Below are positions 7,675 through 26,577 of a stretch of 26,577 bases of DNA, one piece after another. This DNA comes from a virus (Duplodnaviria > Caudoviricetes). The translations under genes and the position numbers were made by a program. Each line of letters opens with the position of its first letter. Within the stretch, counting starts at the first letter, position 1. The stretch lies in IMG/VR virus record IMGVR_UViG_3300002180_000056, positions 1-26,577 of that record; one strand, given 5' to 3'. The notes beneath the pieces were generated by a model that saw only the letters and a program-made list of their open reading frames with translations, had not been told where the DNA came from and did not search any database.

Positions 7675-7676
7675 TA

Positions 7677-10298: not shown

Positions 10299-12395
10299 AT
10301 GCCAACCCCACAAGAAAAGCTGGCAGCATTCCAAGAAATAGCAGACGCTAATCGACAAGGCGAGCTGCCGGCCAAGAATATGGCTATATTCAATGCGCTG
10401 GTAGAGAGCGGGGATATAGCTCTACCCAAAACAGCCGGAAGCCCAAGAGCTGCGAGAGCGCAACAAGCCCAACAGCAGCGGATAAGTGATCGCGACCAGT
10501 TTATAGCGTCATTACCAGCCGCCCAGAGAGAACAGATCGAGAATATGAGTCCGCTAGATGCGGCGTTTATAGCGGCGGGTGGTGGCCTTACTAATGTGAT
10601 GCGCGGCGTAGGCGTGATGGATCAGCCGGATGCTCGCGAGATTGAAGCAAAGCAACAGTTAGAGACTGCTTTCCCGACAGCTACTACAGTCGGAGAGGTC
10701 GCAGGCGAAGCAGCGCCGTTTATAGCGCCTGGACTGGGGGTGGCTGGCATAGTATCGACCCCGCTAAGGGTTGCTGGTACGGCGCTTCTAGGCGGCGCAG
10801 AAGGCCAAATAATAACAAGAGGAGCAGGCGGTAGTGTTGAGAATCAAATTATTGCGGCAGGTATCGGAAGCACTATCGCGGGTGCTATGGAGCTGGGTGT
10901 CCCTGTGCTTGGTCGCGTGGGCGGTAAAGTCTTTCGTAGGATAACAGGCAAATCGCCGAAAGGAGCCGTGATTGATGCGGCTGGCAATCCTTCTGATGAA
11001 TTTCTTGCAGCGCTTAGATCAGAAGGGTTAGAGTTTCAGGACGTTGTAGATGATTCTATCAAAGATCTCCGTAGGCAGGCGGTCGATCCAGAGGCAGCAG
11101 CGCGAAAATCGTTTTTAGAATCACAGGGACTGGTAGGAGACGCAGGGCCAACAAGGGCGCAAATAACCAGATCAGTAGATGATTTTGCCTTGCAGCAAGA
11201 GGCTCTCAAAAGCTCAGGACGGGTCGAGAAGCGACTAGCTGCTCAGGACAGGGTATTAACATCAAGATTTGATAATGCCATTGAGGAAACCGCCGGAAAC
11301 CCTTTTGCTCCTGTATCAAGCGTAAACGAATCGCTATTGAACAAAGCTAACGTCTTGGATGCTGAAATCGGCAGACTATACAAAGAGGCCCGTGAGTTAG
11401 CCCCTGGCGACAAGGTGGTTAGGTTTGACAACCTATCTAAAAAGATCAAAGAACTAGCTCCATTGAACGATAGGGCCGGTGGCAATATCCGCGCTGTATT
11501 CGGAACGATGCAAGAGAAAGGACTGTTGGATGATAATATAATCCCTACAGGACGGATAAGCATAGAGCAAACTGAGACGCAAATCAGGCAGTTAATGAAT
11601 GAACTGTACGATCAAAATATATCTGGTGGGGATATTAAAAACGCAGTTCTTAGGCAGATGAAAGACGCATTAGACGATGACGTTTTCGCTGCTGTTGGCG
11701 ATGATATGTTTGATCAAGCCAGATCAGCAAAGCATAGCTTTGAAACAGAATTAACCAGGGCCAAAATATCAAAATTCGATTCACGAAAAAAGAATATTGT
11801 TCGTGACATGCTAGAAAATAAAGACTCAGTGAATCCTGAAGTATTTACAAATAATGTGGTATTTACCAAGAACTGGAAATCAACCGACCTTCAGCAACTA
11901 AAAGACTATATAACCACAGAAGGGCATGGAAAGGCGGCATGGAATGATCTGCGCGCTGATGTATTGCAGAAAATTAAAGAGCGGTCGTTCATTGGGCCGG
12001 AAGATGGTAGCGGATTTCAGTCATTAAGCAGGGATAAGATAGGCAAAGCAATCTCAGCGGTTGGGGATCTTAAACTTGAGATTCTATTTTCTCCAGATGA
12101 AATTAAATTCCTAAAAAACATGGAGCGAGTAGCGAAGTTCAGAGAGCCTAGAAAAATGGTTGGCCAAGGCTTTGGGCCTTCGGCTAAAGCGGTTCTAGAG
12201 CTAGAAAAACAGATGACAGGCTTTCCGGTAGCTGGTGGGGTTTTCGGAGTTCTAAAGACCGACAGAGCAGGCCGACTAGCTACTAGGGCCAAGCCGTCAC
12301 GGTTATCGGTTCCTTTTGAAGGGTCGGTAGTAAGGCAGGCAATAGGGCTTGGTACAGCAGGCGCAGCAATTGACGCAACAGCAGGGGAAGAGTAG
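10299..12395 (+). CDS. DNA ejection protein (gp16-like position)
   Basis: 698 aa with a G/A-rich hydrophobic segment followed by a helical body; precedes tailspike. Confidence 0.65.
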   Translation: MPTPQEKLAAFQEIADANRQGELPAKNMAIFNALVESGDIALPKTAGSPRAARAQQAQQQRISDRDQFIASLPAAQREQIENMSPLDAAFIAAGGGLTNVMRGVGVMDQPDAREIEAKQQLETAFPTATTVGEVAGEAAPFIAPGLGVAGIVSTPLRVAGTALLGGAEGQIITRGAGGSVENQIIAAGIGSTIAGAMELGVPVLGRVGGKVFRRITGKSPKGAVIDAAGNPSDEFLAALRSEGLEFQDVVDDSIKDLRRQAVDPEAAARKSFLESQGLVGDAGPTRAQITRSVDDFALQQEALKSSGRVEKRLAAQDRVLTSRFDNAIEETAGNPFAPVSSVNESLLNKANVLDAEIGRLYKEARELAPGDKVVRFDNLSKKIKELAPLNDRAGGNIRAVFGTMQEKGLLDDNIIPTGRISIEQTETQIRQLMNELYDQNISGGDIKNAVLRQMKDALDDDVFAAVGDDMFDQARSAKHSFETELTRAKISKFDSRKKNIVRDMLENKDSVNPEVFTNNVVFTKNWKSTDLQQLKDYITTEGHGKAAWNDLRADVLQKIKERSFIGPEDGSGFQSLSRDKIGKAISAVGDLKLEILFSPDEIKFLKNMERVAKFREPRKMVGQGFGPSAKAVLELEKQMTGFPVAGGVFGVLKTDRAGRLATRAKPSRLSVPFEGSVVRQAIGLGTAGAAIDATAGEE

Positions 12396-14431: not shown

Positions 14432-14532
14432 GCTGCCGCGCATTTAACAAAATTCAGCATTAGCGCAATAGCGGGATAGCGGGATATTCCGGCCTGATCT
14501 ATTTCCTCGTTAATAGTGATGGCCGGTCTTAT

Positions 14533-15132
14533 TTAACAGTATGGCTTTAATCCAGCATCCCTTAGAATCTTTCTAAATCGGACGATCTCGTTTTTAATGT
14601 CGGTGTAGTGCGGTAATTGCTCTTTTAATGGTTTATGCGGCCCGTTCAGCCAGTCTAAGTGATCCTGGCCGTACTTATCTATGATGAATAGCTCGTACTC
14701 CTTACGCTTGCCAGAGCCGTGCTGATTGCATTCAACTGAGCATTGCTTGTGAATATTGGTAAGTTCAAACCTTAGTTCGGGGCTACTGCCCCTGCTAATC
14801 ATGTGGCCAGCATCATACTTAACGGACTGGCTAGTTTTCCCGCAAGTGCAACACCCAAGATTCTTATCTCGGACATGTACTACCCACTGATTCACAAGCT
14901 TTTGATATTGGTTTAGCCAGTCCTGCCTGCGCTTAACCCGCTCCTTATCGTCCCTCTGCTTTGATCTCAGGGCTTTTGCGTTCCTCATGGCGTCATTGGC
15001 AGCCTTTTTGCGTGAAAGCCTCTGGCCGTACTGAGAGGCGCATTCAAAGCTATGAAACCAGTTAAGCTGAACCTTAATCATAACGTCACGATCAAAGCGG
15101 TCAGGGCAACCTTTGCACTTTAGTTTTGGCAT
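14533..15132 (-). CDS. ninG: NinG/Rap recombination endonuclease
   Basis: N-terminal CxxC, 'VRD...CCTCG...YDAGH..SRGSSPELRF...NIHKQC..CN..GSG'. Confidence 0.9.
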   Translation of the reverse strand: MPKLKCKGCPDRFDRDVMIKVQLNWFHSFECASQYGQRLSRKKAANDAMRNAKALRSKQRDDKERVKRRQDWLNQYQKLVNQWVVHVRDKNLGCCTCGKTSQSVKYDAGHMISRGSSPELRFELTNIHKQCSVECNQHGSGKRKEYELFIIDKYGQDHLDWLNGPHKPLKEQLPHYTDIKNEIVRFRKILRDAGLKPYC

Positions 15133-15141
15133 TATTTGTTT

Positions 15142-15366
15142 CTACAGTCCAGGGACCATTTGTTTATATGTCCACTTTCTCAAGTTGAGCGCATTATTGA
15201 TAAAGTTATCTGAAGGTTTGTATTTCTCGTCTAGCTCTCTCCAATTTTCTTGGCTAAATATATAATAAAGCGCCCTTTCAGAATGTTTTTCAGTTACACG
15301 GCCTCTTATTGATAGAAGAATAGATAGCACAAATATTGTTTGGCTTATCTCATAAAGCATTTCCAT
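15142..15366 (-). CDS. Hypothetical protein
   Basis: 74 aa, upstream GAGG RBS. Confidence 0.6.
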   Translation of the reverse strand: MEMLYEISQTIFVLSILLSIRGRVTEKHSERALYYIFSQENWRELDEKYKPSDNFINNALNLRKWTYKQMVPGL

Positions 15367-15433
15367 TTCAATATCCTCTTAGTTAATTAATTGGCTACAT
15401 TCACGGACGAGGGTAGCCGTCCCCGTTTAATGC

Positions 15434-15520
15434 TTATTGTCCATGTTTACCCTTTAATATCCTAATATGCGGAAAGTGCGGAAAGTGCGGAATGTGTGCC
15501 GCTTATTACCGCTGTTATAG
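15434..15520 (+). other. Array-proximal attI-like / degenerate attC site, copy 1
   Basis: Near-identical to 22975-23052; ends in core GTTATAG (15514-15520); three TGCGGAA(A/T)G direct repeats; inverted repeat TAATATGCGG/CCGCTTATTA. Confidence 0.65.
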
Positions 15521-15739
15521 GTCAGCGCTCATATAAAACGTGTGTTTCATCGCTGCGCCGTACCCTATGTGAGCCATAATGTCGCCAGGCATAAACCACT
15601 CACAAATCCATCCCTTATATTGATACTGGTAAGAAGGCGAGTAGTATATGTATTTAGGTTCTTGATGGTGTTCTTCACAGTATTTATCCCACGCTTTTTG
15701 CGCAGATCCGTTCTTTCTTGGTCTTTCAAAATACTCCAT
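15515..15739 (-). CDS. Cassette A1 ORF, hypothetical
   Basis: 74 aa; TAA stop lies in the core site GTTA. Confidence 0.75.
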   Translation of the reverse strand: MEYFERPRKNGSAQKAWDKYCEEHHQEPKYIYYSPSYQYQYKGWICEWFMPGDIMAHIGYGAAMKHTFYMSADL

Positions 15740-15746
15740 AAGTCAC

Positions 15747-15808
15747 CTATAACAAGGGCGCTGAAATTCGACTCCGCTACGCTGCGCGATTTAGCTGAAG
15801 CGTTAGCT
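15747..15808 (+). repeat. attC site A1 (62 bp)
   Basis: CTATAAC...GTTAGCT imperfect palindrome; three differences from 23859-23919 between the cores. Confidence 0.9.
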
Positions 15809-16003
15809 GTCTAAAAGCGCCTTCAAGTAATAGATAGGAACCATATCAATCATGCCGTCACTTATACGAACAAATATTGCACATGTTCTTGAATCCCCTC
15901 CTTTCGTGTAGCCATCAATATATCCGGCATCAAACTCCTTCAGCTCAGTTTGATGTATATCCCTAGTTAATTGCGCTATGGTTTTTCCTTTTGGTATTTT
16001 CAT
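15803..16003 (-). CDS. Cassette A2 ORF, hypothetical (66 aa, start revised)
   Basis: ATG at 16003 preceded by GGAGG; stop in core site. Confidence 0.7.
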   Translation of the reverse strand: MKIPKGKTIAQLTRDIHQTELKEFDAGYIDGYTKGGDSRTCAIFVRISDGMIDMVPIYYLKALLDS

Positions 16004-16018
16004 TATCGTAGCCTCCAC

Positions 16019-16077
16019 AGCTAACAAGAAATTCAAGCCGACCTCGTACCTCGGCGGTTTAATATTGGGCGTTATAA
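16019..16077 (+). repeat. attC site A2 (59 bp)
   Basis: AGCTAAC AAGAA ATTCAAGCCGAC...GCGGTTTAAT ATTGGGC GTTATAA; aadA-type 59-base-element layout with unpaired C and A on the + strand. Confidence 0.95.
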
Positions 16078-16236
16078 ATCATCATGCGCCCTATACTTCT
16101 TGGCAATAAACGCCCGTTCTACATGTATCATCACCGCCGCCCGATCCTTTGCCGGAACCTGCGTTTCGATATAGTTCCGGCGCTCTTCTCTTGATTTTAG
16201 TTTAAGGCACTGTAGCGCGTAGTGCCTCGGCCACAT
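16072..16236 (-). CDS. Small phage protein, 54 aa (not in ORF track)
   Basis: MWPRHYALQCLKLKSREERRNYIETQVPAKDRAAVMIHVERAFIAKKYRAHDDL; GGAG RBS; stop lies in the last core site of array A. Confidence 0.75.
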   Translation of the reverse strand: MWPRHYALQCLKLKSREERRNYIETQVPAKDRAAVMIHVERAFIAKKYRAHDDL

Positions 16237-16244
16237 TATCTCCA

Positions 16245-16580
16245 TCAGAATGCAATGTCGTCATCAAATTGATTTGGTGCTTGGTTTTGTTGATAGCTGC
16301 CCTGCTGCTGACCTTGCGCCGGTTGATTCTTGGTATTTTCCGAGTTCCAAAAAACATACATTTTTACAGGGCCGGTATGACCTAATGGCATAACGTCAAT
16401 TTCAACCTCTACATTTGGTGCGCTTGATCCCTGTCGAGCAGGCCATAGCGTAGCTCTGCCAACGGTCGCATATCGATTTTTCATTGCTGGCTGTCCGTTT
16501 TGCCCTGTCTGGCTGGTCTGGTACTTTTCAGCAATTACCGCTACACGGCCTTTGTCTAATGGTGCGTTGTTGTTTTGCAT
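16245..16580 (-). CDS. Putative single-stranded DNA-binding protein
   Basis: Short beta domain, Q-rich linker, acidic tail 'FDDDIAF'; near the Sak recombinase. Confidence 0.65.
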   Translation of the reverse strand: MQNNNAPLDKGRVAVIAEKYQTSQTGQNGQPAMKNRYATVGRATLWPARQGSSAPNVEVEIDVMPLGHTGPVKMYVFWNSENTKNQPAQGQQQGSYQQNQAPNQFDDDIAF

Positions 16581-16597
16581 GTTATTTCCCTCGTTAT

Positions 16598-16837
16598 TTA
16601 TGATTTGCTTTGTCGTTTTGAGTCTCTGGCTGCGCGACCACCGCGAGATCGTGACTTTTCAGCCATCTTCTTTTTCTCTTCGGCAGATATAGGGCCACCG
16701 TTCATTTTATCTAGCCTACGCTGAACATCAGGTGGTAGTACCTCTTTGATCTCTGTACTGCCTACCTTTTCAATCTTGCCGCCTTTGGCTTCAAACTCTG
16801 CTGTTTGTTTTTTAATCTCTTCACTGTCTACTGCCAT
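16598..16837 (-). CDS. Hypothetical protein
   Basis: 79 aa, 'AEFEAKGGKIEKV' motif, GAGG RBS. Confidence 0.65.
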   Translation of the reverse strand: MAVDSEEIKKQTAEFEAKGGKIEKVGSTEIKEVLPPDVQRRLDKMNGGPISAEEKKKMAEKSRSRGGRAARDSKRQSKS

Positions 16838-16848
16838 TACTATTCCTC

Positions 16849-17061
16849 CTAGTTACTCGTTGATCCACCGCGCACTAGAATAAGAAAAATAACCGCAACC
16901 CAGTAACTCCACAAGCTATGATCAATATAAAATTTAGAGCCTCCTAATTCTGCAAGGCTATTAATTGACCATAATAGCAATACAGGGCCAATCAAAAACA
17001 GCAAGCAAAAAAGCCATATAAGTGATCCAGCGCCTAAAACCATAGTGATAAATTCTTTCAT
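16849..17061 (-). CDS. Small membrane protein
   Basis: 70 aa, two hydrophobic segments, GAGGAG RBS. Confidence 0.7.
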   Translation of the reverse strand: MKEFITMVLGAGSLIWLFCLLFLIGPVLLLWSINSLAELGGSKFYIDHSLWSYWVAVIFLILVRGGSTSN

Positions 17062-17080
17062 TGCTGATACTCCTCGTTAT

Positions 17081-17362
17081 TTAATATTCTTTATCACAAA
17101 TAGAGCAAAATGTATAACTATTGCCCATGCTTGTTTTTGTAATCATATCGTGTGGGTATCCGTTAAGCTCACAACAGGGTGCCGTGTGATATGCGCCGCT
17201 GGTATGCTCTGTCCTTACCCCTCGCTTACCGTAGAACTTGTGACCACACTCCCCGCATTCAAGCTCATGCCGTCTATTTGGGGTCATTGGGCCTGGTGTA
17301 TGCACTCGCCTGCAATAAGGGCAAACTGGCTTATCAATATTAAATACGTCGGTATAGGTCAT
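17081..17362 (-). CDS. Cys-rich (zinc-ribbon-like) protein
   Basis: CPYC, CGEC and CSIC motifs. Confidence 0.65.
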   Translation of the reverse strand: MTYTDVFNIDKPVCPYCRRVHTPGPMTPNRRHELECGECGHKFYGKRGVRTEHTSGAYHTAPCCELNGYPHDMITKTSMGNSYTFCSICDKEY

Positions 17363-17841
17363 TACTTAATCCTTAAGCTAGGTTTACTTACACCAAGTTC
17401 CGCCCCGTCTACACTGCCAGCCTTTAACGCTTCAAGCAATGCGCGCTTATCGATAGATTTAACTATTTTTTCGTTAGTGAATTTACCTAGTTTCTTTTCG
17501 TCTGTGATCGTCACAACCTGTCGGCCTTTCACCCTAGAAACTTTGAATAAATCAAATTCGTGCTTTTCTCCATCCTCCATATTCATCACAAGCCATTCCT
17601 TAGTTCTTAGCACGGCTTTTTCTTTAGAGTCTGATAGCTCTTTAAGCCTGTCAATTTCAGCTTTGATTACTACAGAGTCAGATTCAAGGCAGTTGATCAC
17701 AAAAGCACATGATTCGATCTTCTTATCACGAGCCTCTGATATACCACTCAAATGATCATCAACATCCTGCATGGTTAGATCGGTGTTTTCGACCAGCTCC
17801 AATATGCCCTGCTGCTCTTGTGTTAGTTCGCGTAAATTCAT
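17362..17841 (-). CDS. Siphovirus Gp157-family protein (start revised to 17841)
   Basis: 'KIESCAFVI..LE....IKAEIDRL', 'IDK..L..ALKAG.VDGAEL....LRIK'; ATGA overlap with the Sak gene. Confidence 0.8.
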   Translation of the reverse strand: MNLRELTQEQQGILELVENTDLTMQDVDDHLSGISEARDKKIESCAFVINCLESDSVVIKAEIDRLKELSDSKEKAVLRTKEWLVMNMEDGEKHEFDLFKVSRVKGRQVVTITDEKKLGKFTNEKIVKSIDKRALLEALKAGSVDGAELGVSKPSLRIK

Positions 17842-18389
17842 TTTACTTCTTCCCCTTTTGGTTTTCGCTGCCCCCACTGAAACCGAACCATCCCAGTAGT
17901 ATCTTTTGCGGCCAGCCAGTTTAATTTGTTTTCTGTGAACTCTGAATACCAGTGCCATTCCTTCAACTTTAGGTCGTATGACTGCTTAGGCTTCTTATTG
18001 CCGTCCATGTACCATTCGTTGTCTTTTAGCTTCAACTCTATAACTGGGTAGTCGTAAAGCTCCCTACCTATACCCCAATTAAAGCAAGCCCGCTTGAATG
18101 AGTCACTAGCCAGCCCTTTAGCTGCCTCGGTATTTGATTCTGTGCCAGTATCTTCTTTCTGCACCCACTCTTTTTTTTCATCGCACCATATCGATACCAC
18201 GCAATTATGGTTGCCGTTTGTGTGCCTGCGCTGCCAGTTTGTCGGCCCTACAGCCTCATCTAAGCGTTGCTGGTCAACCCTAGCGTCTTTGTAAGCCAGT
18301 ATAACTGCGTACCCGCTCTTCTTAATCCGCTGAACTCTAAAGTCTATCTGGTTGGCTGATAGCGGATCAGTTAAGTTTTCTATTGCCAT
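17838..18389 (-). CDS. Rad52/22-family (Sak-like) single-strand annealing protein
   Basis: 'LAYKDARVDQQRLD..VGP.NWQ', 'KGLASDSFKRACFNWGIGRELYDYP'. Confidence 0.9.
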   Translation of the reverse strand: MAIENLTDPLSANQIDFRVQRIKKSGYAVILAYKDARVDQQRLDEAVGPTNWQRRHTNGNHNCVVSIWCDEKKEWVQKEDTGTESNTEAAKGLASDSFKRACFNWGIGRELYDYPVIELKLKDNEWYMDGNKKPKQSYDLKLKEWHWYSEFTENKLNWLAAKDTTGMVRFQWGQRKPKGEEVK

Positions 18390-19191
18390 TGTAAAGTTCC
18401 GTTATTGTCTTTTGCGTTTTTCTTTGTTCGGCCTCGTACTGGTGGCTGTATCCATCGTTGTACGGTTTAGATTTTTCGGTATGCGGTATCCCGTCTTTGC
18501 AATCCCTTATGCCTTGTAGATAATCCTCTAGATCGCTCATTTGTAATGCCCTTTTTTCGTCTTTTTTGATTAAACCGTTGGTGGTGTGCTCTAAATTATT
18601 ATCAATCACATATTGATCGTAGGCTTTTGCTGCTTCTAGCTTATCTTTATGCCGACCAAGATAGATGGTCTTGCTATTTACAGTGATTTCTGCTTTCCAC
18701 TTGCTGCTTGACTTGTCAAAAAAAACCCCGCGATATCCGCTGGTGTTGGTTGCAATCAATATCCTTTTGTTTCGCTGTTGAACAGATTGCGTTGTAAACC
18801 TGCAATTATCAGGATCGTAATTTCCGTCATTGTTGATTCGATCAATTGTTAGGTCGTCGTTGTAGCCGTTAGATTCAGCCCATCCACGAAACGCTGCGAA
18901 ATCATACCATTCATCACAAATCTTGATTCCACGCCCTCCGTGGCTTTTATAAGACCGATGGTTTTCATTGTTGCAGCGCTGCTTAATGTTACTCCATGTT
19001 TTATACAGTCGTGTTCCGACCCCGCCGTGGGTGATGTTGACACACGACTTACATGATTCCGATATAAGCCCGCTATGAATCCTAACCTCGCAGCTTGTCG
19101 TGCAAACCGGACAGAGGAAAAGGCCATACCTAGACTTTTGCTTAGATGTCGCGGTTGCATATCGCATGTCTAGCTTTTTGATTAGTTGCAT
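18367..19191 (-). CDS. HNH-AP2 homing endonuclease, in frame with a 57 aa downstream ORF
   Basis: 'GGRGIKICDEW', 'LTIDRINNDGNY.P.NCR', AP2-type 'NTSGYRGV...W.A.I....YLG.....EAAKAYD'. Confidence 0.88.
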   Translation of the reverse strand: MQLIKKLDMRYATATSKQKSRYGLFLCPVCTTSCEVRIHSGLISESCKSCVNITHGGVGTRLYKTWSNIKQRCNNENHRSYKSHGGRGIKICDEWYDFAAFRGWAESNGYNDDLTIDRINNDGNYDPDNCRFTTQSVQQRNKRILIATNTSGYRGVFFDKSSSKWKAEITVNSKTIYLGRHKDKLEAAKAYDQYVIDNNLEHTTNGLIKKDEKRALQMSDLEDYLQGIRDCKDGIPHTEKSKPYNDGYSHQYEAEQRKTQKTITELYNGNRKLN

Positions 19192-19222
19192 CTTAGAACC
19201 CTATCCCTCTATCGGATGAACA

Positions 19223-19588
19223 TTAGCTAAACCGCCACTGATTCGCTTCAACCCCTTTTTTGACTTCATGCTGTATCGATTCAACAAGCCGCTTTGCTGC
19301 CAAAGCCAATGTAATAATTTCTCTTTCGGTCATATCTGCAATAGTTTTATCTGTCTCGCATTCGCACAAAAGAGATAAGAGTTTCACGCACCATGGGGTT
19401 TCATTAAGTACCTCAGCCAGCAGATCTGAATCATCCCCGCCCATTAGCCGGTCGGTTATTTCATCAATACGTTCCTGTTCCGCCTGCTCTCGCTCTTCAT
19501 CGCTCATAAGGCTCCTTTGCTTTGCTTCAGACTCTTCTAGTTGGCTATAGTAGTCGTTGGTGTCTCGGTTTACTCGGTCAATTTCCAT
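19223..19588 (-). CDS. Hypothetical protein
   Basis: 121 aa acidic, in the minus-strand gene train. Confidence 0.65.
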   Translation of the reverse strand: MEIDRVNRDTNDYYSQLEESEAKQRSLMSDEEREQAEQERIDEITDRLMGGDDSDLLAEVLNETPWCVKLLSLLCECETDKTIADMTEREIITLALAAKRLVESIQHEVKKGVEANQWRFS

Positions 19589-19590
19589 AG

Positions 19591-19956
19591 CTAATCAACC
19601 TCTAAAGGAAATACGTTGGTTAGCCCTGCATCAGATTGATTGCGCCTTGCTTCGTACATGCGCTTACGGGCACCATTGCTAAGGTCTACCCTTTCCATGC
19701 TTGATAGGTAGAGTGGGCTTTCAGATGGCTCTACGTCGTTCTCAGATTGGATTTGATCCTCCCAGCGTCTTGGGCCAACTATAGCCCTTGCTTCGTGTGT
19801 CTCGCGGCATTCAGCTTGAGATCGGATCAGGTTTTCTAGTGAGTTAACTTTTAGGGTTAGCTTGTGAACTTGACGATCTCGATCTGCCAATTGCTGCTCT
19901 AACTTGCGGATGGTTGCTTTCATTTTCTCTTGCCTCGTTAGTTCCTCTTGATACAT
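19591..19956 (-). CDS. Hypothetical coiled-coil protein
   Basis: 121 aa, heptad-like N-terminus. Confidence 0.65.
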   Translation of the reverse strand: MYQEELTRQEKMKATIRKLEQQLADRDRQVHKLTLKVNSLENLIRSQAECRETHEARAIVGPRRWEDQIQSENDVEPSESPLYLSSMERVDLSNGARKRMYEARRNQSDAGLTNVFPLEVD

Positions 19957-20117
19957 CTTGCGCTAGTTATAGTGTCAATTTCGTTTGACTGGATGCGGTA
20001 TTTTGTCTCTTGCTCGTGCTTAAATCCGTAATTCTCCAGAACTTCTTTTATAGCTCCCTCAAAAAGGCCGCCAGGAAGCTCGACCATAACAACATCACCC
20101 GCCTTGTAAGGCTTCAT
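19938..20117 (-). CDS. Hypothetical protein (59 aa, start revised)
   Basis: MKPYKAGDVVMV...; ATGA overlap with upstream ORF. Confidence 0.6.
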   Translation of the reverse strand: MKPYKAGDVVMVELPGGLFEGAIKEVLENYGFKHEQETKYRIQSNEIDTITSARCIKRN

Positions 20118-20287
20118 TTCTGAAGCCTCATCTCTGCCAGCGTTGCGTCTATGCACTCTTTAACCATCACTCTGACTTTCTTGCTGTGCGTATCATAATG
20201 AAGGCCCATTGTGCTATTGAACGCTTCTTCAACAAGCTCTGGAGTTGCGTTATCTTCTGTAAGAATGATGAATTTGTCGTTTTTCAT
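20114..20287 (-). CDS. Hypothetical protein, 57 aa (not in ORF track)
   Basis: MKNDKFIILTEDNATPELVEEAFNSTMGLHYDTHSKKVRVMVKECIDATLAEMRLQK. Confidence 0.65.
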   Translation of the reverse strand: MKNDKFIILTEDNATPELVEEAFNSTMGLHYDTHSKKVRVMVKECIDATLAEMRLQK

Positions 20288-20330
20288 TTTCTAGTTTCTC
20301 TTTAGTTAGTGTCTTTGTGTGTATGGGTTT

Positions 20331-20374
20331 AGTATACACGCATATATAGAGAGCGGTAGCTTTTTATGTGTCTA
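20331..20374 (-). promoter_or_regulatory. Leftward promoter/operator, copy 1
   Basis: -10 TATACT (20331-20336); 13 bp TATACACGCATAT shared with 26508-26520; weak -35. Confidence 0.5.
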
Positions 20375-20567
20375 TGTTAGATCGGATTGGTATATCGTTA
20401 TACTTAAAATAACTAGACCTCATGTAATAGTCACACGTAACCACGCCTTTGATAGTGACTGGCTTGAATATAGAATATGACTGCACGCAACCTGGCGTAG
20501 CGTTAAACCGATAGCAGGTTTTGGATAGCTCGCAGTCTTTGTTTTCGCACATTGAAATATCAGGCAT
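20364..20567 (-). CDS. Small Cys-rich phage protein
   Basis: 'MPDISMC...C.L...CYRF.A.P...QSY'; AAGGAG RBS. Confidence 0.7.
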   Translation of the reverse strand: MPDISMCENKDCELSKTCYRFNATPGCVQSYSIFKPVTIKGVVTCDYYMRSSYFKYNDIPIRSNIDT

Positions 20568-20759
20568 GGTTTGGCTCCTTAGTGATTATTACCGCCCTTT
20601 CATTTGATCCCCGTAGGTAGTCAAATTACTAAGCTCCCCTAGTCCTGTAAACAGGCTTCAAATAGATAACGGACAGTTTGGCGGTGTTGTCCCGTCTAGT
20701 GTTATCAGCTTTTTGTCAGCTTTTTTGAACGGCGGCCACTAACTAGGGCTATGTTTGCT

Positions 20760-20788
20760 TTGATCTTTTACGATTGGCGCATTATACT
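20760..20788 (+). promoter_or_regulatory. Sigma70-like promoter, antisense to the early arm
   Basis: TTGATC-17 bp-TATACT. Confidence 0.6.
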
Positions 20789-20794
20789 AACGGC

Positions 20795-20931
20795 CATTGA
20801 CGCTAGGAGGTTCGGTCCTTCGTCAAACAGGTTGTCTTGTAAACAACCGAGATAGAAGTTTAACCCAACCGGCTGAGATATGCCAATTAGACTTTTATCG
20901 CATCTAAGCCAGTTTAATCGCTGGCTTTTTT
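20795..20931 (+). ncRNA. Putative antisense small RNA of about 135 nt
   Basis: Bounded by promoter and terminator; hairpins at 20797-20826 and 20830-20848; no ORF. Confidence 0.5.
20906..20931 (+). terminator. Rho-independent terminator
   Basis: AAGCCAG-TTTAATCG-CTGGCTT followed by a T run. Confidence 0.7.
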
Positions 20932-21035
20932 GTGTCTCGTTATTATGGTTTGCCCCTCCAGCCCTTCCCTGGATACGTTTTCGACGCTATTGTAGCCAAT
21001 AGACTTACGCGCTATTCGGGCCTTAATCTTTGCTT

Positions 21036-21236
21036 CTATATGTTCGGCTCATGGAACAGATTGTTGTTTTTAAGTTTAATGATTTCGTCCGGCGTAACCC
21101 CAAGCTTTATAAGCTCAAGAACTGGGATACCTTCGCTTCCTTTATCAAACCCCTCCATGCCGCTAAAATAGCTTACTAGGCCGTTTTTGTCAGTTATAGC
21201 GCCCGTTTCTTTATCGTATTCAAATATTGTTTTCAT
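21036..21236 (-). CDS. Hypothetical protein, paralogue of cassette ORF 25419-25619
   Basis: Both 66 aa; share Y...TGAITD.NG and G.T...II.LK. Confidence 0.75.
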   Translation of the reverse strand: MKTIFEYDKETGAITDKNGLVSYFSGMEGFDKGSEGIPVLELIKLGVTPDEIIKLKNNNLFHEPNI

Positions 21237-21385
21237 TCAGTTATATCCTCTATTTTGTCAGCCAACGGCTTATCTGGCCTATCCGCACAAAACTCACAGC
21301 CTGGATTACCGCACTGCGGCTCAGTCCACTCATTAGTATCATCATCATAATAAGCATCGTACTTTTCACTTCGTTTGATTGTCAT
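21233..21385 (-). CDS. Small Cys-containing protein, 50 aa (not in ORF track)
   Basis: MTIKRSEKYDAYYDDDTNEWTEPQCGNPGCEFCADRPDKPLADKIEDITE; ATGA overlap. Confidence 0.7.
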   Translation of the reverse strand: MTIKRSEKYDAYYDDDTNEWTEPQCGNPGCEFCADRPDKPLADKIEDITE

Positions 21386-21553
21386 TTAACTATCCCTCTC
21401 TTCAAGTAGCTCTACAATCCGCGCTAAGTGGTAAAACAAAATACAAGCACCAGTAACAGCGAGTAGAACTAAAGATTCTAGTTGTCCATCAACAAATATA
21501 TTTAACGCTGAAACGGCAACAGCCAAAATAATCCATAATGCTTTAGTTTTCAT
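21386..21553 (-). CDS. Small membrane protein, 55 aa (not in ORF track)
   Basis: MKTKALWIILAVAVSALNIFVDGQLESLVLLAVTGACILFYHLARIVELLEERDS; GGAGG RBS. Confidence 0.7.
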   Translation of the reverse strand: MKTKALWIILAVAVSALNIFVDGQLESLVLLAVTGACILFYHLARIVELLEERDS

Positions 21554-21713
21554 TAATCACCTCCACATCGTCCTTAAAGATGATATTGATATGTCCCGCT
21601 GGCTCCCTAGCCCAAAAAAACTCACTGCATTCCCTTTCTACTTCAACGGTTTTACCAAGCATCTTGGCGTACCACGTATGATTGTACTTGCTCTTTTTTA
21701 TTCGTACTTTCAC
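21543..21713 (-). CDS. Hypothetical protein, 56 aa (not in ORF track)
   Basis: GTG start overlapping the HNH stop; MKVRIKKSKYNHTWYAKMLGK...WAREPAGHINIIFKDD. Confidence 0.65.
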   Translation of the reverse strand: MKVRIKKSKYNHTWYAKMLGKTVEVERECSEFFWAREPAGHINIIFKDDVEVINEN

Positions 21714-22375
21714 AGTCTATCCAAAGAATTAATTAATCCGTTTGTAGTGTGCTCTAGGTTATTGTCGATGACGTAAGCGTCATAGGTTTTGGCGGCTTCT
21801 AGGGCTTTCTCAAAATAGCCGATATGGATCACCTTGCTATCAACACTGATTTGAACGCGCCATTTATTTTGTGGCTTGTCAAAGCTTACTCCGCGATAAC
21901 CGCTTGTATTATTAGCCCTTAATCGCCTAGTGTTTCTGGATTGAACCGACTGCGTGGTAAGCCTGCAATTGCCTGGGCAGTAGTCACCATCGTTATCAAT
22001 ACGATCAATTTTAAGGTTGTCTAAATAACCATTAGCTAAAGACCAGTCACGGAACAGGTCGAAATTGATCCATTCATCACAAACTTTTATTCCACGACCG
22101 CCATAACAACTATAATCAGAGTTGTTTACGTTGTTGCATCGTTGATTCATACCCTTCCATATTTTATATAACCTAGTGCCAGTTCCTCCGTGTTTTGAGA
22201 AACGCTTACCAGTAGCAATCGCAGCGCACGGCTTGCATGATTTCGCTCTAAGCCCACTATGAATAACAACTTCCACGCTTGTCGTGCAATCTGAGCAAAG
22301 AAATAAACCATAACGACGCTTTTGCGCGCTTAATTCTGTCGGGAAACGCATGTCGAGCTTTTTGATTAATTGCAT
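21710..22375 (-). CDS. HNH-AP2 homing endonuclease
   Basis: 'YGGRGIKVCDEW', 'IDRIDNDGDY.PGNCR', 'NNTSGYRGV'; paralogue of 18367-19191. Confidence 0.9.
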   Translation of the reverse strand: MQLIKKLDMRFPTELSAQKRRYGLFLCSDCTTSVEVVIHSGLRAKSCKPCAAIATGKRFSKHGGTGTRLYKIWKGMNQRCNNVNNSDYSCYGGRGIKVCDEWINFDLFRDWSLANGYLDNLKIDRIDNDGDYCPGNCRLTTQSVQSRNTRRLRANNTSGYRGVSFDKPQNKWRVQISVDSKVIHIGYFEKALEAAKTYDAYVIDNNLEHTTNGLINSLDRL

Positions 22376-22384
22376 TTGAATAAT

Positions 22385-22481
22385 CTCCAGTCACGGATTA
22401 ATCAGTCGAAGTGTTGCGCCAATGGGTGACTGAATTCCCATGTTTCGGCCTGCATTGCCTAGGCGCACAACCATTATAGCA
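22385..22481 (-). ncRNA. Structured leader with extended -10 promoter (c4-antisense-like)
   Basis: TGCTATAAT; closing stem TGCGCC/GGCGCA; hairpin loop TCAGTCA(C) complementary to two downstream sites, one overlapping the GGAG RBS. Confidence 0.55.
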
Positions 22482-22483
22482 GC

Positions 22484-22960
22484 CTATTCAGCATCAGAAA
22501 ACGCTCGAAGCGCGATTCTCACCCCTTTGCTGCGATTCCCTTTGCCAATCTCTGTCGCTAGTTTAGCGTCACTATCCGCCATGATGATGTTGTGGGGGAA
22601 CATTGCATCACCCCTATTCAATACCGGCTTGTGCTTCTTGGCTGTTACTTTACGCTGGAAAACTTCCGTAATGTAATTTTCTATATATTCTTTAAGCGTA
22701 CCATGCTTTAGCTTTTTCATCTCAACTCTAGGCTTAAATACAAAGCCATCGAAGTCAGGGTATTGATGCTTGTTGGCTTCAATGTAATTGTTTAGATACC
22801 CCTCAAGAAACTCAATTACCTCTACAGCAGTGGCCCTGTCGTAAATAGGATATTTACCTTCTGTATTGGCTAGGTACGCCATCACTCTATAATCCAGCTT
22901 GATGCCGGTCTCTTTCTCAAACTGCCTTTTGAAGTCAGGCATTGCTTCATGTTTCATCAT
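22484..22960 (-). CDS. Hypothetical protein, possible C-terminal DNA-binding module
   Basis: 158 aa; basic stretch followed by 'LATEIGKGNRSKGVRIAL' (ribbon-helix-helix-like, inference). Confidence 0.55.
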   Translation of the reverse strand: MMKHEAMPDFKRQFEKETGIKLDYRVMAYLANTEGKYPIYDRATAVEVIEFLEGYLNNYIEANKHQYPDFDGFVFKPRVEMKKLKHGTLKEYIENYITEVFQRKVTAKKHKPVLNRGDAMFPHNIIMADSDAKLATEIGKGNRSKGVRIALRAFSDAE

Positions 22961-22974
22961 TCTGTATTACCTCG

Positions 22975-23052
22975 TTATTTTCCATGTTTTGGCTTTAATA
23001 TCCTAATATGCGGAAAGTGCGGAATGTGTGCCGCTTATTACCGCTGTTATAT
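22975..23052 (+). other. Array-proximal attI-like / degenerate attC site, copy 2
   Basis: Matches 15434-15520 apart from 4 substitutions at the left end, one fewer 9 bp repeat and the last core base; ends GTTATAT (23046-23052). Confidence 0.65.
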
Positions 23053-23463
23053 GGCTGCCACTCCTAATAATCCAGCGCCTAAACTACCGAAACCTTGACG
23101 CATCGTTGTGTTCATTGTTGCCGCCTGTCTTTGCAATTCTACTAGCCTCCTTTGCTCTGAAAAAACATCATAATTAACAGCTGGGCCATCCTTTATTATG
23201 CCAACCCCTTTCATGGCATTTACTAGTAAATCGGCCTCGGTCTGCTCTCTAACCATATTCTTTAATTTGTTGCGTTCTGTTTCTATTTTGCAAGCCGCTT
23301 CTTTTATCCTGTCCACCTCTTTGTCTAAAACGGCTACGCGATCAAGTAAATCAGCATTATTGCCATTAGCATCGTTTATTTGTTCACTTAGCTCATCGTT
23401 ACTTTTTGTTAGCCGTTTTACCTCAGCTTTAATCTCTCTCTTTCCTTTAAAATACATAATCAT
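23047..23463 (-). CDS. Cassette B1 ORF, coiled-coil protein
   Basis: 138 aa; stop in core site. Confidence 0.75.
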   Translation of the reverse strand: MIMYFKGKREIKAEVKRLTKSNDELSEQINDANGNNADLLDRVAVLDKEVDRIKEAACKIETERNKLKNMVREQTEADLLVNAMKGVGIIKDGPAVNYDVFSEQRRLVELQRQAATMNTTMRQGFGSLGAGLLGVAAI

Positions 23464-23471
23464 ATCCCGCC

Positions 23472-23534
23472 ATATAACAAGGTGTTGAAAAATGGACGGG
23501 CAAAAGCGCCCGCCTTTTAACTTAAGCGTTATAC
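23472..23534 (+). repeat. attC site B1 (63 bp)
   Basis: ATATAAC...GGACGGGCAAAAGCGCCCGCC...GTTATAC. Confidence 0.9.
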
Positions 23535-23834
23535 GGCTTCGCCGCAGTATGAAACAGAAAGCCCACTACTACCCTCAACCTTGCATTGTGCATCATTGAA
23601 TAGTGTTGTTATGTCTGTGCTTTTTGGTACTGCGTCATACCAGTAAGGGCTGAACGGTGGTCGCCATCGATCCCGATCGATAACAATTGGACAAGAGGGG
23701 ATATGAGTTTCTTTAACACCAAACAGCGAATCAAGCTGCTCGTACAGCTCCCTGGCTTCGGTAATGGTCAGCTCAACCTCATTGCCGCTTTTGGTTTCCA
23801 GTGCGATCTTTGTTAGTTTAAGTTTCTTGCTCAT
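23529..23834 (-). CDS. Cassette B2 ORF, hypothetical (101 aa, start revised)
   Basis: MSKKLKLTK... with GGAG RBS; the longer ORF-track start runs through the attC into the next cassette. Confidence 0.75.
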   Translation of the reverse strand: MSKKLKLTKIALETKSGNEVELTITEARELYEQLDSLFGVKETHIPSCPIVIDRDRWRPPFSPYWYDAVPKSTDITTLFNDAQCKVEGSSGLSVSYCGEAV

Positions 23835-23858
23835 TTTCGTGTCTCCAAGTTTTGCGCC

Positions 23859-23919
23859 GTATAACAAGGCGCTAAAATTCGACTCCGCTACGCTGCGCGA
23901 TTTAGCTAAAGCGTTATAT
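23859..23919 (+). repeat. attC site B2 (61 bp)
   Basis: GTATAAC...GTTATAT; near-duplicate of attC A1. Confidence 0.9.
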
Positions 23920-24135
23920 GGCTTCAATTTGCACATTTTTAGCCCATGATGTACCGTCAATAGCCATTGAAGTTATGAAATATAAATTACTATCTACGTG
24001 TAAAATTATCTCTTCTTTATCGGTTCCTGCATTAAGTATTTGCTCTGCGTTATAAGAAATGCGTTCGCCTTCGTAAGTGACTTTCAGCTTGTCGCCTTCT
24101 TTAATCTGTCCTGCATATAACAAGTCATTCAACAT
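23914..24135 (-). CDS. Cassette B3 ORF, hypothetical
   Basis: 73 aa; ATG and GAGG RBS lie inside attC B3. Confidence 0.75.
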   Translation of the reverse strand: MLNDLLYAGQIKEGDKLKVTYEGERISYNAEQILNAGTDKEEIILHVDSNLYFITSMAIDGTSWAKNVQIEAI

Positions 24136-24187
24136 CGCTCGTTCCTCGCTTGGACGGCTTCGCCGCCAGTTAATTAAGGCGTTATAT
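24115..24187 (+). repeat. attC site B3 (73 bp)
   Basis: ATATAAC AAGTC ATTCAAC...GTTAAT TAAGGC GTTATAT. Confidence 0.9.
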
Positions 24188-24412
24188 TGCCTTGCTGCCT
24201 AGCCAGTTATTTTTTAGCCCCAAGTACCAGCTATACGTATAAAATATTGTTAACATTAAAATACCCCACTGCTCTGCGGTATACGCTGAATAAAACCAAA
24301 ACGGCTGGCCCGCCAACCCAAACAAGCAGGCATATTTTTTCCACGCCTCCTTGCTTTGCTGTGTAAGCCAAATTGCCAAACCTCCGGTTATTGCTATTGC
24401 TAGTTGCTCCAA
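24182..24412 (-). CDS. Cassette B4 ORF, small 3-TM membrane protein (PnuC/SemiSWEET-like half transporter, tentative)
   Basis: 'FGLAGQPFWFY......QWGI', three hydrophobic segments; TTG start with AAGGAG. Confidence 0.6.
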   Translation of the reverse strand: MEQLAIAITGGLAIWLTQQSKEAWKKYACLFGLAGQPFWFYSAYTAEQWGILMLTIFYTYSWYLGLKNNWLGSKAI

Positions 24413-24430
24413 AACCTTCTCCTTAATTTA

Positions 24431-24490
24431 ATATAACAAGGTTCATCAAGCCGATTCGCTACACTCACGGCTTATTAACGGGCGTTAGGC
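24431..24490 (+). repeat. attC site B4 (60 bp)
   Basis: ATATAAC...ATCAAGCCG...CGGCTTAT...GTTAGGC. Confidence 0.9.
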
Positions 24491-24616
24491 GCCTAAAAAT
24501 AGGCCGATATTCAATCCAGCAATAATCCCGTTAATAGCGTCAATGGGGCTGCCACCAAAACCGGCTAATGCTAAATAGGCAAAAACAACACCAACACCCA
24601 AGTTTAAAAACTTCAT
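24485..24616 (-). CDS. Cassette B5 ORF, 43 aa hydrophobic peptide (not in ORF track)
   Basis: MKFLNLGVGVVFAYLALAGFGGSPIDAINGIIAGLNIGLFLGA; GAGG RBS; stop in core site. Confidence 0.75.
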   Translation of the reverse strand: MKFLNLGVGVVFAYLALAGFGGSPIDAINGIIAGLNIGLFLGA

Positions 24617-24638
24617 TTTTTACCTCATGCGCCGTAGC

Positions 24639-24698
24639 GCCTAACAAGAAATTCAAGCCGACCTCGCAAGCTCGGCGGTTTAATATTGGGCGTTATGT
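24639..24698 (+). repeat. attC site B5 (60 bp)
   Basis: GCCTAAC...GTTATGT; identical to attC A2 between the cores except at the apical loop. Confidence 0.95.
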
Positions 24699-25028
24699 TG
24701 CTTTAATCATAAAGCGCGGCTTTTCACATAAAGCGTTTATATTCACTAGCTGCTTCAATAGGTGCGCTCTCACCGGATCTTCGTGGTATTGCCTTTCCGC
24801 CTTTCTAATCTCGTTAGGGCTTGGTTCAATATTCCACCCACACTCAAATAATTCAGCCTTAATTTTTTTCAGCAAAAAAGCCTCATACTCACGTAGCATT
24901 GCTTCTGCTTGTTCAATTAATAGTCTATGCTCCGGTTCAACGTATGGTGGCAACATAACAAGGCGTTCGTTCAGACCTGCTACTGCGTCGGTTTTTTCTG
25001 GTTCGGCGGTTTGCTTATCTTCTTTCAT
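24693..25028 (-). CDS. Cassette B6 ORF, hypothetical
   Basis: 111 aa; start and GAGG RBS inside long attC B6. Confidence 0.7.
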   Translation of the reverse strand: MKEDKQTAEPEKTDAVAGLNERLVMLPPYVEPEHRLLIEQAEAMLREYEAFLLKKIKAELFECGWNIEPSPNEIRKAERQYHEDPVRAHLLKQLVNINALCEKPRFMIKAT

Positions 25029-25080
25029 TTTCCAAAATCCTCATGTAATTTCCGCAGGCTGCACAACTAAAGCGTTATGC
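24953..25080 (+). repeat. attC site B6 (128 bp, long variable terminal region)
   Basis: ACATAAC AAGGC GTT(C)GTTCAG(A)CCTGC...GCAGGCTGCACAAC TAAAGC GTTATGC. Confidence 0.85.
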
Positions 25081-25383
25081 GCCAATAGCGCCAATTTTAT
25101 CAATGTAATATTGGACTCTTTCAGTTGTTAAATAACCAACAACAGAATCACCGCTATCTTCTTCATCAATAAATTTTTCATCACTAGGCATTATTTCAAA
25201 CAACCCCTCATCACCACCATAGGAATATTGTCCTCTTATAATACTTAATGAATGCCCGTTTTTAAAATACACTCTGGCTCTAGCCATGCCATTAATTGGG
25301 TCGCTGACATCATCCACATGGTCAATAGTGTCTACGCATAACAATGCGTTTAACTCGGATTCGTCACTCTTCGCTTCGCTCAT
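25075..25383 (-). CDS. Cassette B7 ORF, conserved phage-type hypothetical protein
   Basis: 'F.NG..LSII.G.YSYGGDEGLFEI....V.GYLT'; start inside attC B7. Confidence 0.75.
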   Translation of the reverse strand: MSEAKSDESELNALLCVDTIDHVDDVSDPINGMARARVYFKNGHSLSIIRGQYSYGGDEGLFEIMPSDEKFIDEEDSGDSVVGYLTTERVQYYIDKIGAIGA

Positions 25384-25416
25384 TATTCCTCTCCGGTTAA
25401 CTAAATTGCGTTATAT
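25336..25416 (+). repeat. attC site B7 (81 bp)
   Basis: GCATAAC AATGC GTTTAACTCGG...CCGGTTAAC TAAATTGC GTTATAT. Confidence 0.85.
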
Positions 25417-25418
25417 GG

Positions 25419-25619
25419 CTAAATTATTTCCCTACTCTTCAGCGCAATAATATCTTCAGTTGTAAAACCTGCATCCTTCAGCTTTACAATTCCTTCCACT
25501 CCTTTGCCGTTTTGTGCTTTTGTTTCGTGTTGCTCTAGTCCAGGCCAGATGCAAATCATAATGCCGTTGTTGTCTGTAATAGCCCCTGTAGATTGCTCAT
25601 AATTTAGTTCAATTTTCAT
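25419..25619 (-). CDS. Cassette B8 ORF, paralogue of 21036-21236
   Basis: 66 aa; AAGGAG RBS. Confidence 0.75.
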   Translation of the reverse strand: MKIELNYEQSTGAITDNNGIMICIWPGLEQHETKAQNGKGVEGIVKLKDAGFTTEDIIALKSREII

Positions 25620-25640
25620 TCCTGTTTCTCCTTAATCGCC

Positions 25641-25702
25641 TTATAACAAGGCGTTCAAAATCCGACCGCAAAAAGCGCGACGGTTTAACTAAAGCGTTAA
25701 AC
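25641..25702 (+). repeat. attC site B8 (62 bp)
   Basis: TTATAAC AAGGC GTTCAAA...GGTTTAAC TAAAGC GTTAAAC. Confidence 0.9.
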
Positions 25703-26203
25703 ATTACGTTCTAAATAAACTCCGCGATCGCTCATCCGCCCCAAAGCTTCCGAGCATTCATTTCCGAATGCGAACATCACGGTACCGGCAGCACTTCGGC
25801 TTTGTTTGTGCTGGTTTTCTTTGCCTGGTATGAACTGGATCCGCCCTCCTAGAAATAGCATAGATGCGCATGATTTCATTGCCTCCTGGCACCAGGCTGC
25901 GTCTGTCCGGCTAAATACGAGAGCTACCCCGTTACCATGCGCTATCATTCTGCGGATCCAAAAAGGCGTCTCTTTGCCATACGGCGGATTAAGCCATACC
26001 CGACCGAGCCACTCTTTGCTAAGCCCATCATCAAACACAGTGAGCTTGGTTTTAGCTGGTACCGCCGTCTCCATATCGTGTGGTGATGATGGATCCAGAT
26101 CGAAAGTTATCGCCAACTCTTCAAAAATCCATGCAGGCGTGTACCACTCCGCGCTCTTGTGAGTATTTTTAGCTGCTGATTTATTTGTAAAAAGTCCGTC
26201 CAT
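25697..26203 (-). CDS. Cassette B9 ORF, phage-type DNA N6-adenine methyltransferase
   Basis: 'EWYTP', 'FDLDP', 'DDGL...W.GRVWLNPPYG', 'SRTD..W', 'GRIQF'. Confidence 0.9.
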   Translation of the reverse strand: MDGLFTNKSAAKNTHKSAEWYTPAWIFEELAITFDLDPSSPHDMETAVPAKTKLTVFDDGLSKEWLGRVWLNPPYGKETPFWIRRMIAHGNGVALVFSRTDAAWCQEAMKSCASMLFLGGRIQFIPGKENQHKQSRSAAGTVMFAFGNECSEALGRMSDRGVYLERNV

Positions 26204-26215
26204 TCGTCACCAAAT

Positions 26216-26270
26216 GTTTAACAAGTCGTCAATCGGACGGCTACGCCGCCGCTTACTTTAGGCGTTACTC
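26216..26270 (+). repeat. attC site B9 (55 bp), last of array
   Basis: GTTTAAC AAGTC GT(C)AATCGG(A)CGGC TAC GCCGCCGCTTAC TTTAGGC GTTACTC. Confidence 0.9.
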
Positions 26271-26468
26271 AAACAACCCTCTAGCCTTACCGCACTCATT
26301 ACACTGCTTTGATGCTGAGTGACTCATAGCCACCAGAATCCAGATAGGAACCCAAATACCTACCGTAATAACGGATAGGATAAGGTGTAGGATATGGCTG
26401 GTGCTTTATGCCACATGTGCAGTGATTTTATTGCAGTGTCGGCACTTTTTCATAATCATGTTAGACAT
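26265..26468 (-). pseudogene. Zinc-ribbon plus transmembrane small protein with an internal stop
   Basis: MSNMIMKKCRHCNKITAHVA*STSHILHLILSVITVGIWVPIWILVAMSHSASKQCNECGKARGLFE; in-frame TAA at 26406-26408; GAGG RBS. Confidence 0.7.
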
Positions 26469-26505
26469 GGGTGTATCCTCGTTGTTTTCGTTTGTCTTGC
26501 TATTC

Positions 26506-26550
26506 AATATACACGCATATTTATACAATACAACCATTTTGCGTGTTTAT
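26506..26550 (-). promoter_or_regulatory. Leftward sigma70-like promoter/operator reading into array B
   Basis: TTGTAT (26528-26533)-16 bp-TATATT (26506-26511); overlapped by inverted ACACGCA/TGCGTGT. Confidence 0.55.
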
Positions 26551-26577
26551 TTTATATTCCTTCGCTTTCGCGTTGGT

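Follow-up and report, generated by a model that had tools for sequence, protein, structure and literature searches.

Can integron gene cassettes be carried by a phage with every gene running against the polarity of its own attC recombination site, and what would then move them? The question is raised by a 26,577 nt stretch of tailed-phage DNA (hereafter, the window; positions 1 to 26,577 of IMG/VR record IMGVR_UViG_3300002180_000056), which is identical to part of a 39,596-bp record (G001) rated as 100% complete. Two arrays of attC sites within it hold 11 cassettes, for which a preliminary description, made from the letters alone, had proposed that all open reading frames (ORFs) are antisense to the attC top strand. 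By the sequence tests applied here, the genes are integron cassettes and the arrays are clusters of attC sites lacking an integron integrase (CALINs), but they are neither canonical cassettes nor a complete integron. The reversed layout is a variant of the known phage CALINs, with an orientation that is apparently undescribed in the literature searched, and it is a recurring phage class rather than a property of this genome alone. Judging from sequence comparison, phages likely exchange such cassettes by means of an integron enzyme, for which this phage itself has no gene.

The top strand of an attC site is defined by the extrahelical base on the arm that carries AAC (Nivina 2016, PMC5027507; here and below, published work is cited for parts of each paper). 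Each site was scored for a one-base bulge on the left arm, on the right arm or on neither, and in all 11 sites of the window the best score was obtained with the unpaired base in the AAC arm of +; the relative side was the same in 14/14 when a third array, outside the window, was included. By the rule of PMC5027507 the + strand is therefore the top strand, as had been proposed. An unpaired C, also offered as a mark of polarity, is found on the top strand in a majority of sites (8/11 in the window, 10/14 overall) and is not universal, the bulged base being G in A1 and B1 and A in B2. All 14 sites have R'' (..TAAC) and R' (GTT..) cores with an imperfect L''/L' inverted repeat, and the minus strand gives the more stable fold in 9/11 window sites, mostly by about 1 kcal/mol or less. 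A detector run over 14501-26577 returned 11 sites on + and one on minus, compared to 0.27 per shuffle in shuffled sequence (n = 30, both strands), and none of the sites in the 30 shuffles had an 8-nt match to a cassette start. The likeness of A2 and B5 to aadA-type sites also held, as both begin like the attC-aadA7 top strand in Table S3 of Qi 2023. Other searches were less informative: Rfam gave nothing above the gathering score, BLAST of attC A2 found no match in plasmids, attC B2 gave only short chance matches in cultured phages, array B gave one gene match and no attC in cultured phages, and the GC and AT skew of the attC bodies had no consistent sign.

The longest ORF of every cassette lies on the minus strand (11/11), again as first described, and in 10 cases it ends on the TTA of the G/TTA core. 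Top-strand cassette ORFs ending near R'', the canonical bacterial-type layout, were found in 0/14 cassettes. A Shine-Dalgarno (SD)-like motif is present in 8/11 cassettes, and the start lies inside the attC for B3, B6 and B7. PHROG matches were obtained for the minus-strand ORFs of B4, B7 (weak) and B9, and for none of ten + strand ORFs. Features of the two arrays, and of the genes next to and between them, are as follows (in attC B1, B2, B4, B6, B7 and B8 the assignment is by bulge scoring and folding).

15434..15521, + strand: A0, attI-like left site; crossover core G/TTATAGG at 15514; not an attC (bulge absent, AAT for AAC)
15515..15739, - strand: A1 cassette ORF, 74 aa; stop is the core TTA; no family match
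15746..15809, + (top) strand: attC A1; body 94% like B2
15803..16003, - strand: A2 cassette ORF, 66 aa; ATG with SD; stop at core
16018..16078, + strand: attC A2, last site of array A; aadA7-like start
16072..16245, - strand: native early gene ahead of array A, without its own attC; stop is the TTA of the last core; weak match to phrog_3648
17838..18389, - strand: Erf-like ssDNA annealing protein (phrog_1097, E 4.7e-26)
22975..23053, + strand: B0, attI-like left site; core G at 23046
23047..23463, - strand: B1 cassette ORF, 138 aa; stop at core
23471..23535, + strand: attC B1
23529..23834, - strand: B2 cassette ORF; ATG with SD; stop at core
23858..23920, + strand: attC B2
23914..24135, - strand: B3 cassette ORF; SD and ATG within the bottom strand of its own attC; stop at core
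24114..24188, + strand: attC B3; body identical to that of C2, whose gene is unrelated
24182..24412, - strand: B4 cassette ORF, small membrane protein (phrog_22312); stop at core
24430..24491, + strand: attC B4
24485..24616, - strand: B5 cassette ORF, 43 aa; SD; stop at core
24638..24699, + strand: attC B5; body 93% like A2
24693..25028, - strand: B6 cassette ORF; about 25 first codons encoded by its own long attC; stop at core
24952..25081, + strand: attC B6, 130 nt
25075..25383, - strand: B7 cassette ORF; SD and ATG within its own attC; stop at core; weak match to phrog_4074
25335..25417, + strand: attC B7
25419..25619, - strand: B8 cassette ORF; TAG 8 nt short of the core; paralogous to the non-cassette gene 21036-21236
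25640..25703, + strand: attC B8
25697..26203, - strand: B9 cassette ORF, phage Dam-type DNA adenine methyltransferase (PF05869, E 9e-17, above cut-off; phrog_111); stop at core
26215..26271, + strand: attC B9, last site of array B; core GTTACTC deviates from GTTRRRY
26265..26468, - strand: gene ahead of array B, small Cys-containing membrane-type protein; ends on the last core; in-frame TAA at 26406-26408

The core G of the left site is at 15514 in array A, followed by attC cores at 15802 and 16071, and at 23046 in array B, followed by 23528, 23913, 24181, 24484, 24692, 25074, 25410, 25696 and 26264. The region 15514-26270 had been described as one span; the two arrays do lie within it, but it is not continuous, as about 7 kb of ordinary early genes separate them. 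Cassettes in the window measure 208-568 bp. The third array (C; L003:9388-10317 of G001) lies in the divergent early arm and consists of a left site (C0) and three attC sites; it is flipped together with its genes, and its ORFs are likewise antisense to the top strand. The gene ahead of each of the three arrays has its stop on the last core. With 2, 9 and 3 attC sites and no IntI in G001, these arrays are CALINs under the definition in the methods section of PMC9892861 (at least two attC sites within 3 kb and no IntI).

For each site, the match of R'' to the beginning of its own cassette spans 6-10 nt (mean 8.8) and that to the next core 4-7 nt (mean 4.9, with a floor of 4); the own-start match is the longer in 11/11. 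Complementarity of R'' to its own cassette start is a mark of cassettes that were once circular, but it fits both polarities, which a shared cassette can tell apart. One such case was found, outside this window, between two other genomes: positions 16024-16354 of G007 and 11025-11355 of G010 are 100% identical over 339 nt. The identity runs from four bases before the left G/TT, through the gene and the right-hand attC body, to the right GTTA, and the neighbours differ on both sides. Since it includes the right-hand body, what moved in this single case is the gene together with the attC that precedes its start codon, with the cut at R'. An ordinary cassette simply inserted by its top strand was considered as the source of the layout and rejected by reasoning, because such an insertion would invert the attC body along with the gene.

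As first described, the arrays begin with a left site that is not an attC (A0 and B0), located at their transcriptional downstream end. A conserved site of this kind with G/TTA heads all three arrays: A0 and B0 are 91-94% identical, C0 is 97% identical to both over 30 nt, and roughly 80 nt are common to the three, with a start codon of the coding strand among them. In its final 20 nt the site looks like the L'-spacer-R' half of an attC, and approximately this stretch recurs at the head of reversed arrays in other phages. A scan for the left site gave 22 viral loci; in the 12 loci listed after this genome, the record of G008 itself and one duplicate were dropped, an ORF ended exactly on the core in eight and nearly so in one, and three look like chance matches. 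The site occurs seven times in G008 (52.8 kb, complete, no PF00589), split four to three between the two arms. One gene start is also present twice in G008, flanking the divergence point in opposing orientations (6767-6958 and 7637-7957). From its position, the left site may be a minimal attI.

A complete phage integron, G017, has the same arrangement of reversed cassettes behind a non-attC left site ending CT/GTTA, and its first cassette is a homologue of C1, the first cassette of array C (39% identical). Unlike the arrays of G001, it carries an intact intI (L405:4182-5222; TIGR02249, 372 bits with a cut-off of 265), which begins about 30 nt left of that site; the site has the same position as those of the window and little sequence likeness to them. 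The intI is transcribed co-directionally with, and downstream of, the reversed cassettes, and the record has two further tyrosine recombinases. Together with the core-to-core shared cassette and the flipped third array, G017 supports the geometry originally put forward, in which the bottom strand is the coding (non-template) strand. In G016 (L406:4483-4955) what is left of an integron integrase, matching its last ~45 residues only, overlaps a reversed cassette. The P2-like phage G004 (L141) has, left of its first core, a ~24-nt tandem repeat ending ACGCT/GTT, a different type of site; its recombinase is not IntI. Promoter-like matches in the window are at chance level (23, compared to 24.6 in shuffles), and the ORFs face away from the direction of a Pc promoter on the attI side. 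Among sequencing runs, one DNA run and no RNA run was listed for this sequence, which says nothing about expression either way.

Viral contigs had been named as the place to look for further reversed arrays. As an external control, one attC pattern derived from this phage was run on viral contigs (93 loci) and bacterial genomes (at least 121 loci); the viral set also took in the 120 loci of a looser scan, three loci of this genome were dropped, and full flanks were available for 80 loci per scan. The looser pattern had been the first used on viral contigs and was rejected as too loose, giving 120 loci but only two cassette calls. Among the matches listed, 81 bacterial cassettes were found in 36 of at least 121 loci, with 72 ORFs on the top strand, three on the bottom, three ambiguous and three without a call. 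The same classifier found 36 viral cassettes in 17/210 loci, of which 23 were bottom, seven top and six ambiguous, and it called eight top and one ambiguous in the published M16-3 phage integron (n = 9). Some of the viral top calls are shadow frames, and G014 looks reversed throughout on inspection. The longest ORF ends on the core in 16/36 viral cassettes and in 1/81 bacterial ones among the matches listed. The pattern is biased to sites like those of this phage, and the numbers are therefore counts, not frequencies for all phages. A sequence-only model (R1), which matches the window on + by construction, fell opposite to the genes in phage PH101 and on the gene strand in two bacterial loci; it missed M16-3 and the lytic phage TJE1.

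Phage CALINs have been reported from lytic phages, with sites that recombine with attI1 via IntI1, the bottom strand better than the top (Qi 2023, PMC9892861). Like those, the phage studied here has attC clusters without IntI and a methyltransferase among its cargo. The parts of the Qi 2023 text used here make no mention of ORFs antisense to attC, although its figures or annotation file may show orientation, and describe no phage attI-like site, several arrays per genome or stop codon on the core. When the Qi 2023 sites were located in PH101, the top strand proved to be the + strand of the record and the four annotated genes there were on minus, i.e. reversed, with the ORF call agreeing in two of three cassettes. 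In P12002L, attC1 is opposite to its genes and attC2 is not. Antisense phage cassettes were not found described in the literature searched, in which subscription journals were thinly covered, and the layout goes unmentioned in the portions used of 10.1101/2022.09.11.507474, 10.1101/2022.02.06.479319, PMC8946536 and PMC8876359.

Bacterial integron arrays, as far as they are covered by the parts of PMC5027507 and PMC5371416 used here, share the attC boxes, the bulge on the AAC arm, own-start complementarity, a single attI-like end and the reuse of attC bodies on unrelated genes. This phage is unlike them in having bottom-strand ORFs, an attC ahead of the gene that often supplies the SD and start codon (3/11), stop codons located on R' instead of R'', small cassettes in three arrays, and no intI. 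A GWT target suffices for IntI at secondary (attG) sites (10.1101/2022.09.11.507474). The right end of each array, where the stop codon of a phage gene reads as GTTA, is like an attG insertion; the left half is unlike one, being a conserved ~20-nt site present up to seven times per genome rather than a random target.

The cargo points to phages as the place of cassette formation, as judged from sequence. C1 is Thoeris anti-defence 2-like (Tad2-like; PF11195, E 1e-22). None of the 25 viral relatives of B4 (37-80% identity) is in a cassette, its homologue in Vibrio phage K453 (gene 0075) is without an attC, and the B8 paralogue in the same genome (21036-21236) is also a non-cassette gene. Relatives of gene 22484-22960 and of B7 were not found beyond this genome, except for two loci matching the first 43 residues of B7. 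A set of 99 cassettes, selected for their reversed layout in 31 records and cleared of exact duplicates, contained 47 pairs with an attC body in common at 85% or higher; none of these shared an interior, and only 10 had the R'' 4-mer in common. In G001 itself, B3 and C2 have identical bodies and different ends, while B6 and C2 have 19 nt of the start in common and different bodies. These comparisons and the 47 pairs indicate that body, end pair and gene reassort. We infer that phages may make cassettes by adapting ordinary phage genes to a limited stock of attC bodies that are used repeatedly. The long type of attC (24956-25028 in the window, also in G008 and L389) encodes a ~25-residue N-terminal peptide that is fused to unrelated genes in at least six cassettes, and such fusions could mislead protein clustering.

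On this evidence the arrays probably consist of genuine integron gene cassettes of mirrored polarity, likely shuffled by IntI; the integrase would be supplied in trans because this phage encodes none. The attC hairpin stands ahead of each gene, and the stop codon of the gene would be the crossover core, so that crossover there would leave reading frames intact. IntI from the host or a co-infecting phage would recombine the folded bottom strand, here the coding strand; the short left site would serve as attI, new cassettes would enter there, downstream in the transcript, and the phage early promoters would drive all cassettes as a single operon. By integron rules, as first proposed, the leftmost cassette would then be the newest, and such cassettes would be silent in a host integron. 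The replication initiator is situated between arrays B and C. Replication of lambda is bidirectional, and if replication from this initiator were so too, all three bottom strands would be lagging-strand templates while the genes would stay co-directional with the fork. Location on the lagging-strand template favours attC recombination (Loot 2017, PMC5371416), but the argument is confounded with transcription direction.

Several results weigh against this interpretation. The 39.6 kb of G001 gave no match to TIGR02249 or PF00589 at E<=10, the left site adjoined IntI in 0/30 metagenome loci within the stretches examined, and intact IntI was present in only 1/27 records tested (most are fragments; six viral records are at least 90% complete). 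Contigs of run X1, which may be the source of the window itself, agree with the array sequence and show other DNA joined at cores and R'' boxes, but a clean core-to-core excision joint was absent from them, and none of the window's own cassettes was found whole in another genome. In PH101, the ORF call for one of the three cassettes slightly favours the top strand, and TJE1 has ordinary polarity. The G008 left site at 6766, between the divergence point and the replication genes, is a misfit to the lagging-strand argument.

It could be that the attC bodies are now mere repeated boundaries, at which the Erf-like annealing protein swaps genes by short homology with no need of an integron integrase. 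The lack of IntI in G001, the Erf-like and Gam-like genes between the arrays, the near-identical bodies on unrelated genes and the ~80 nt of left site in three genome copies, start codon included, a duplication beyond what IntI alone would do, would all suit such a process. Own-start complementarity of R'' in 11/11 cassettes would be useless to it, however, the cassette common to G007 and G010 ends within four bases of both cores, and bulge side and spacers are kept in 14/14 sites. As the whole explanation it is improbable, yet the two routes may be active together.

Two further explanations would keep the cassettes ordinary in one respect or another. Read on minus, each gene is followed by TAAC, hairpin and GTT, as in a normal array, and if a phage-adapted recombinase had inverted its strand choice and treated minus as the top strand, expression would be ordinary; inverting the bulges does switch the strand bound by IntI1 (PMC5027507). 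The travelling unit of the G007/G010 cassette takes in the body ahead of the gene, which largely refutes this, and the non-attC end lies downstream of the genes, adjoining intI in G017, and for PH101 sites arranged in this way recombination was better with the bottom strand (in the part of Qi 2023 used); we regard inverted strand choice as very unlikely. Little probability is likewise left for bacterial cassettes acquired from a host integron, among which rare reverse-ORF cassettes were selected for expression in the phage operon. Reverse ORFs do occur in 3/81 bacterial cassettes among the matches listed, and A2, B5 and B9 resemble the aadA7-type site of bacterial loci. Against this, the cargo is of phage families (25/25 phage relatives of B4 non-cassette, a non-cassette paralogue of B8, a phage Dam in B9 and the Tad2-like C1), the window attC sites lie far from all 123 bacterial sites compared, with 0.61 per base as the best alignment score, and bodies of 85-100% identity are common among phages.

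Elsewhere in the window, gene calls and PHROG matches place a structural arm on + and one early arm on minus, with genes for major head, head closure, NinG, Gam-like and Erf-like proteins and two HNH genes. The latter (18367-19191 and 21710-22375, minus strand) are paralogous endonuclease genes, 3.2 kb apart, with ~74% DNA likeness over the aligned stretches. A near-palindromic 14-nt motif, a possible promoter or operator, is common to ~20335-20350 and ~26500-26515, upstream of two early gene blocks. Directly downstream of A0 is a GC-rich hairpin (15400-15430) with an arm resembling the loop of attC B9; the hairpin and A0 are separated by a 5-codon ORF, and B0 is followed by a short ORF of similar kind. 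In the gene ahead of array B (26265-26468), a variant contig of run X1 has a different base at 26408, within the in-frame TAA.

Models of integrons assume a gene on the attC top strand that is read from Pc, and the reversed phage class, in which recombination polarity is retained and the gene reversed, shows that expression need not follow attC polarity. How integron cassettes are made is an open question in general, and these phages offer a handle on it: members of one gene family are found both inside and outside cassettes, and one and the same attC body can accompany unrelated genes, each with its R'' box fitted. Since PH101 is in culture, the reversed layout can already be put to the test. 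Bacterial integrons are reportedly stores of anti-phage systems (10.1101/2024.07.02.601686); set beside the Dam and Tad2-like cargo described here, phage and host may both be making use of a single recombinase in their conflict. More tentatively, and as a speculation we would back only in part, phages may run a mirror-image integron economy, in which ordinary phage genes are made into cassettes de novo on reused attC bodies, a 20-nt attI is scattered over the early operons, IntI is borrowed for shuffling anti-defence genes and polarity acts as a firewall. If this is true, host anti-phage cassettes captured by a phage, and phage anti-defence cassettes captured by a host, would both be silent.

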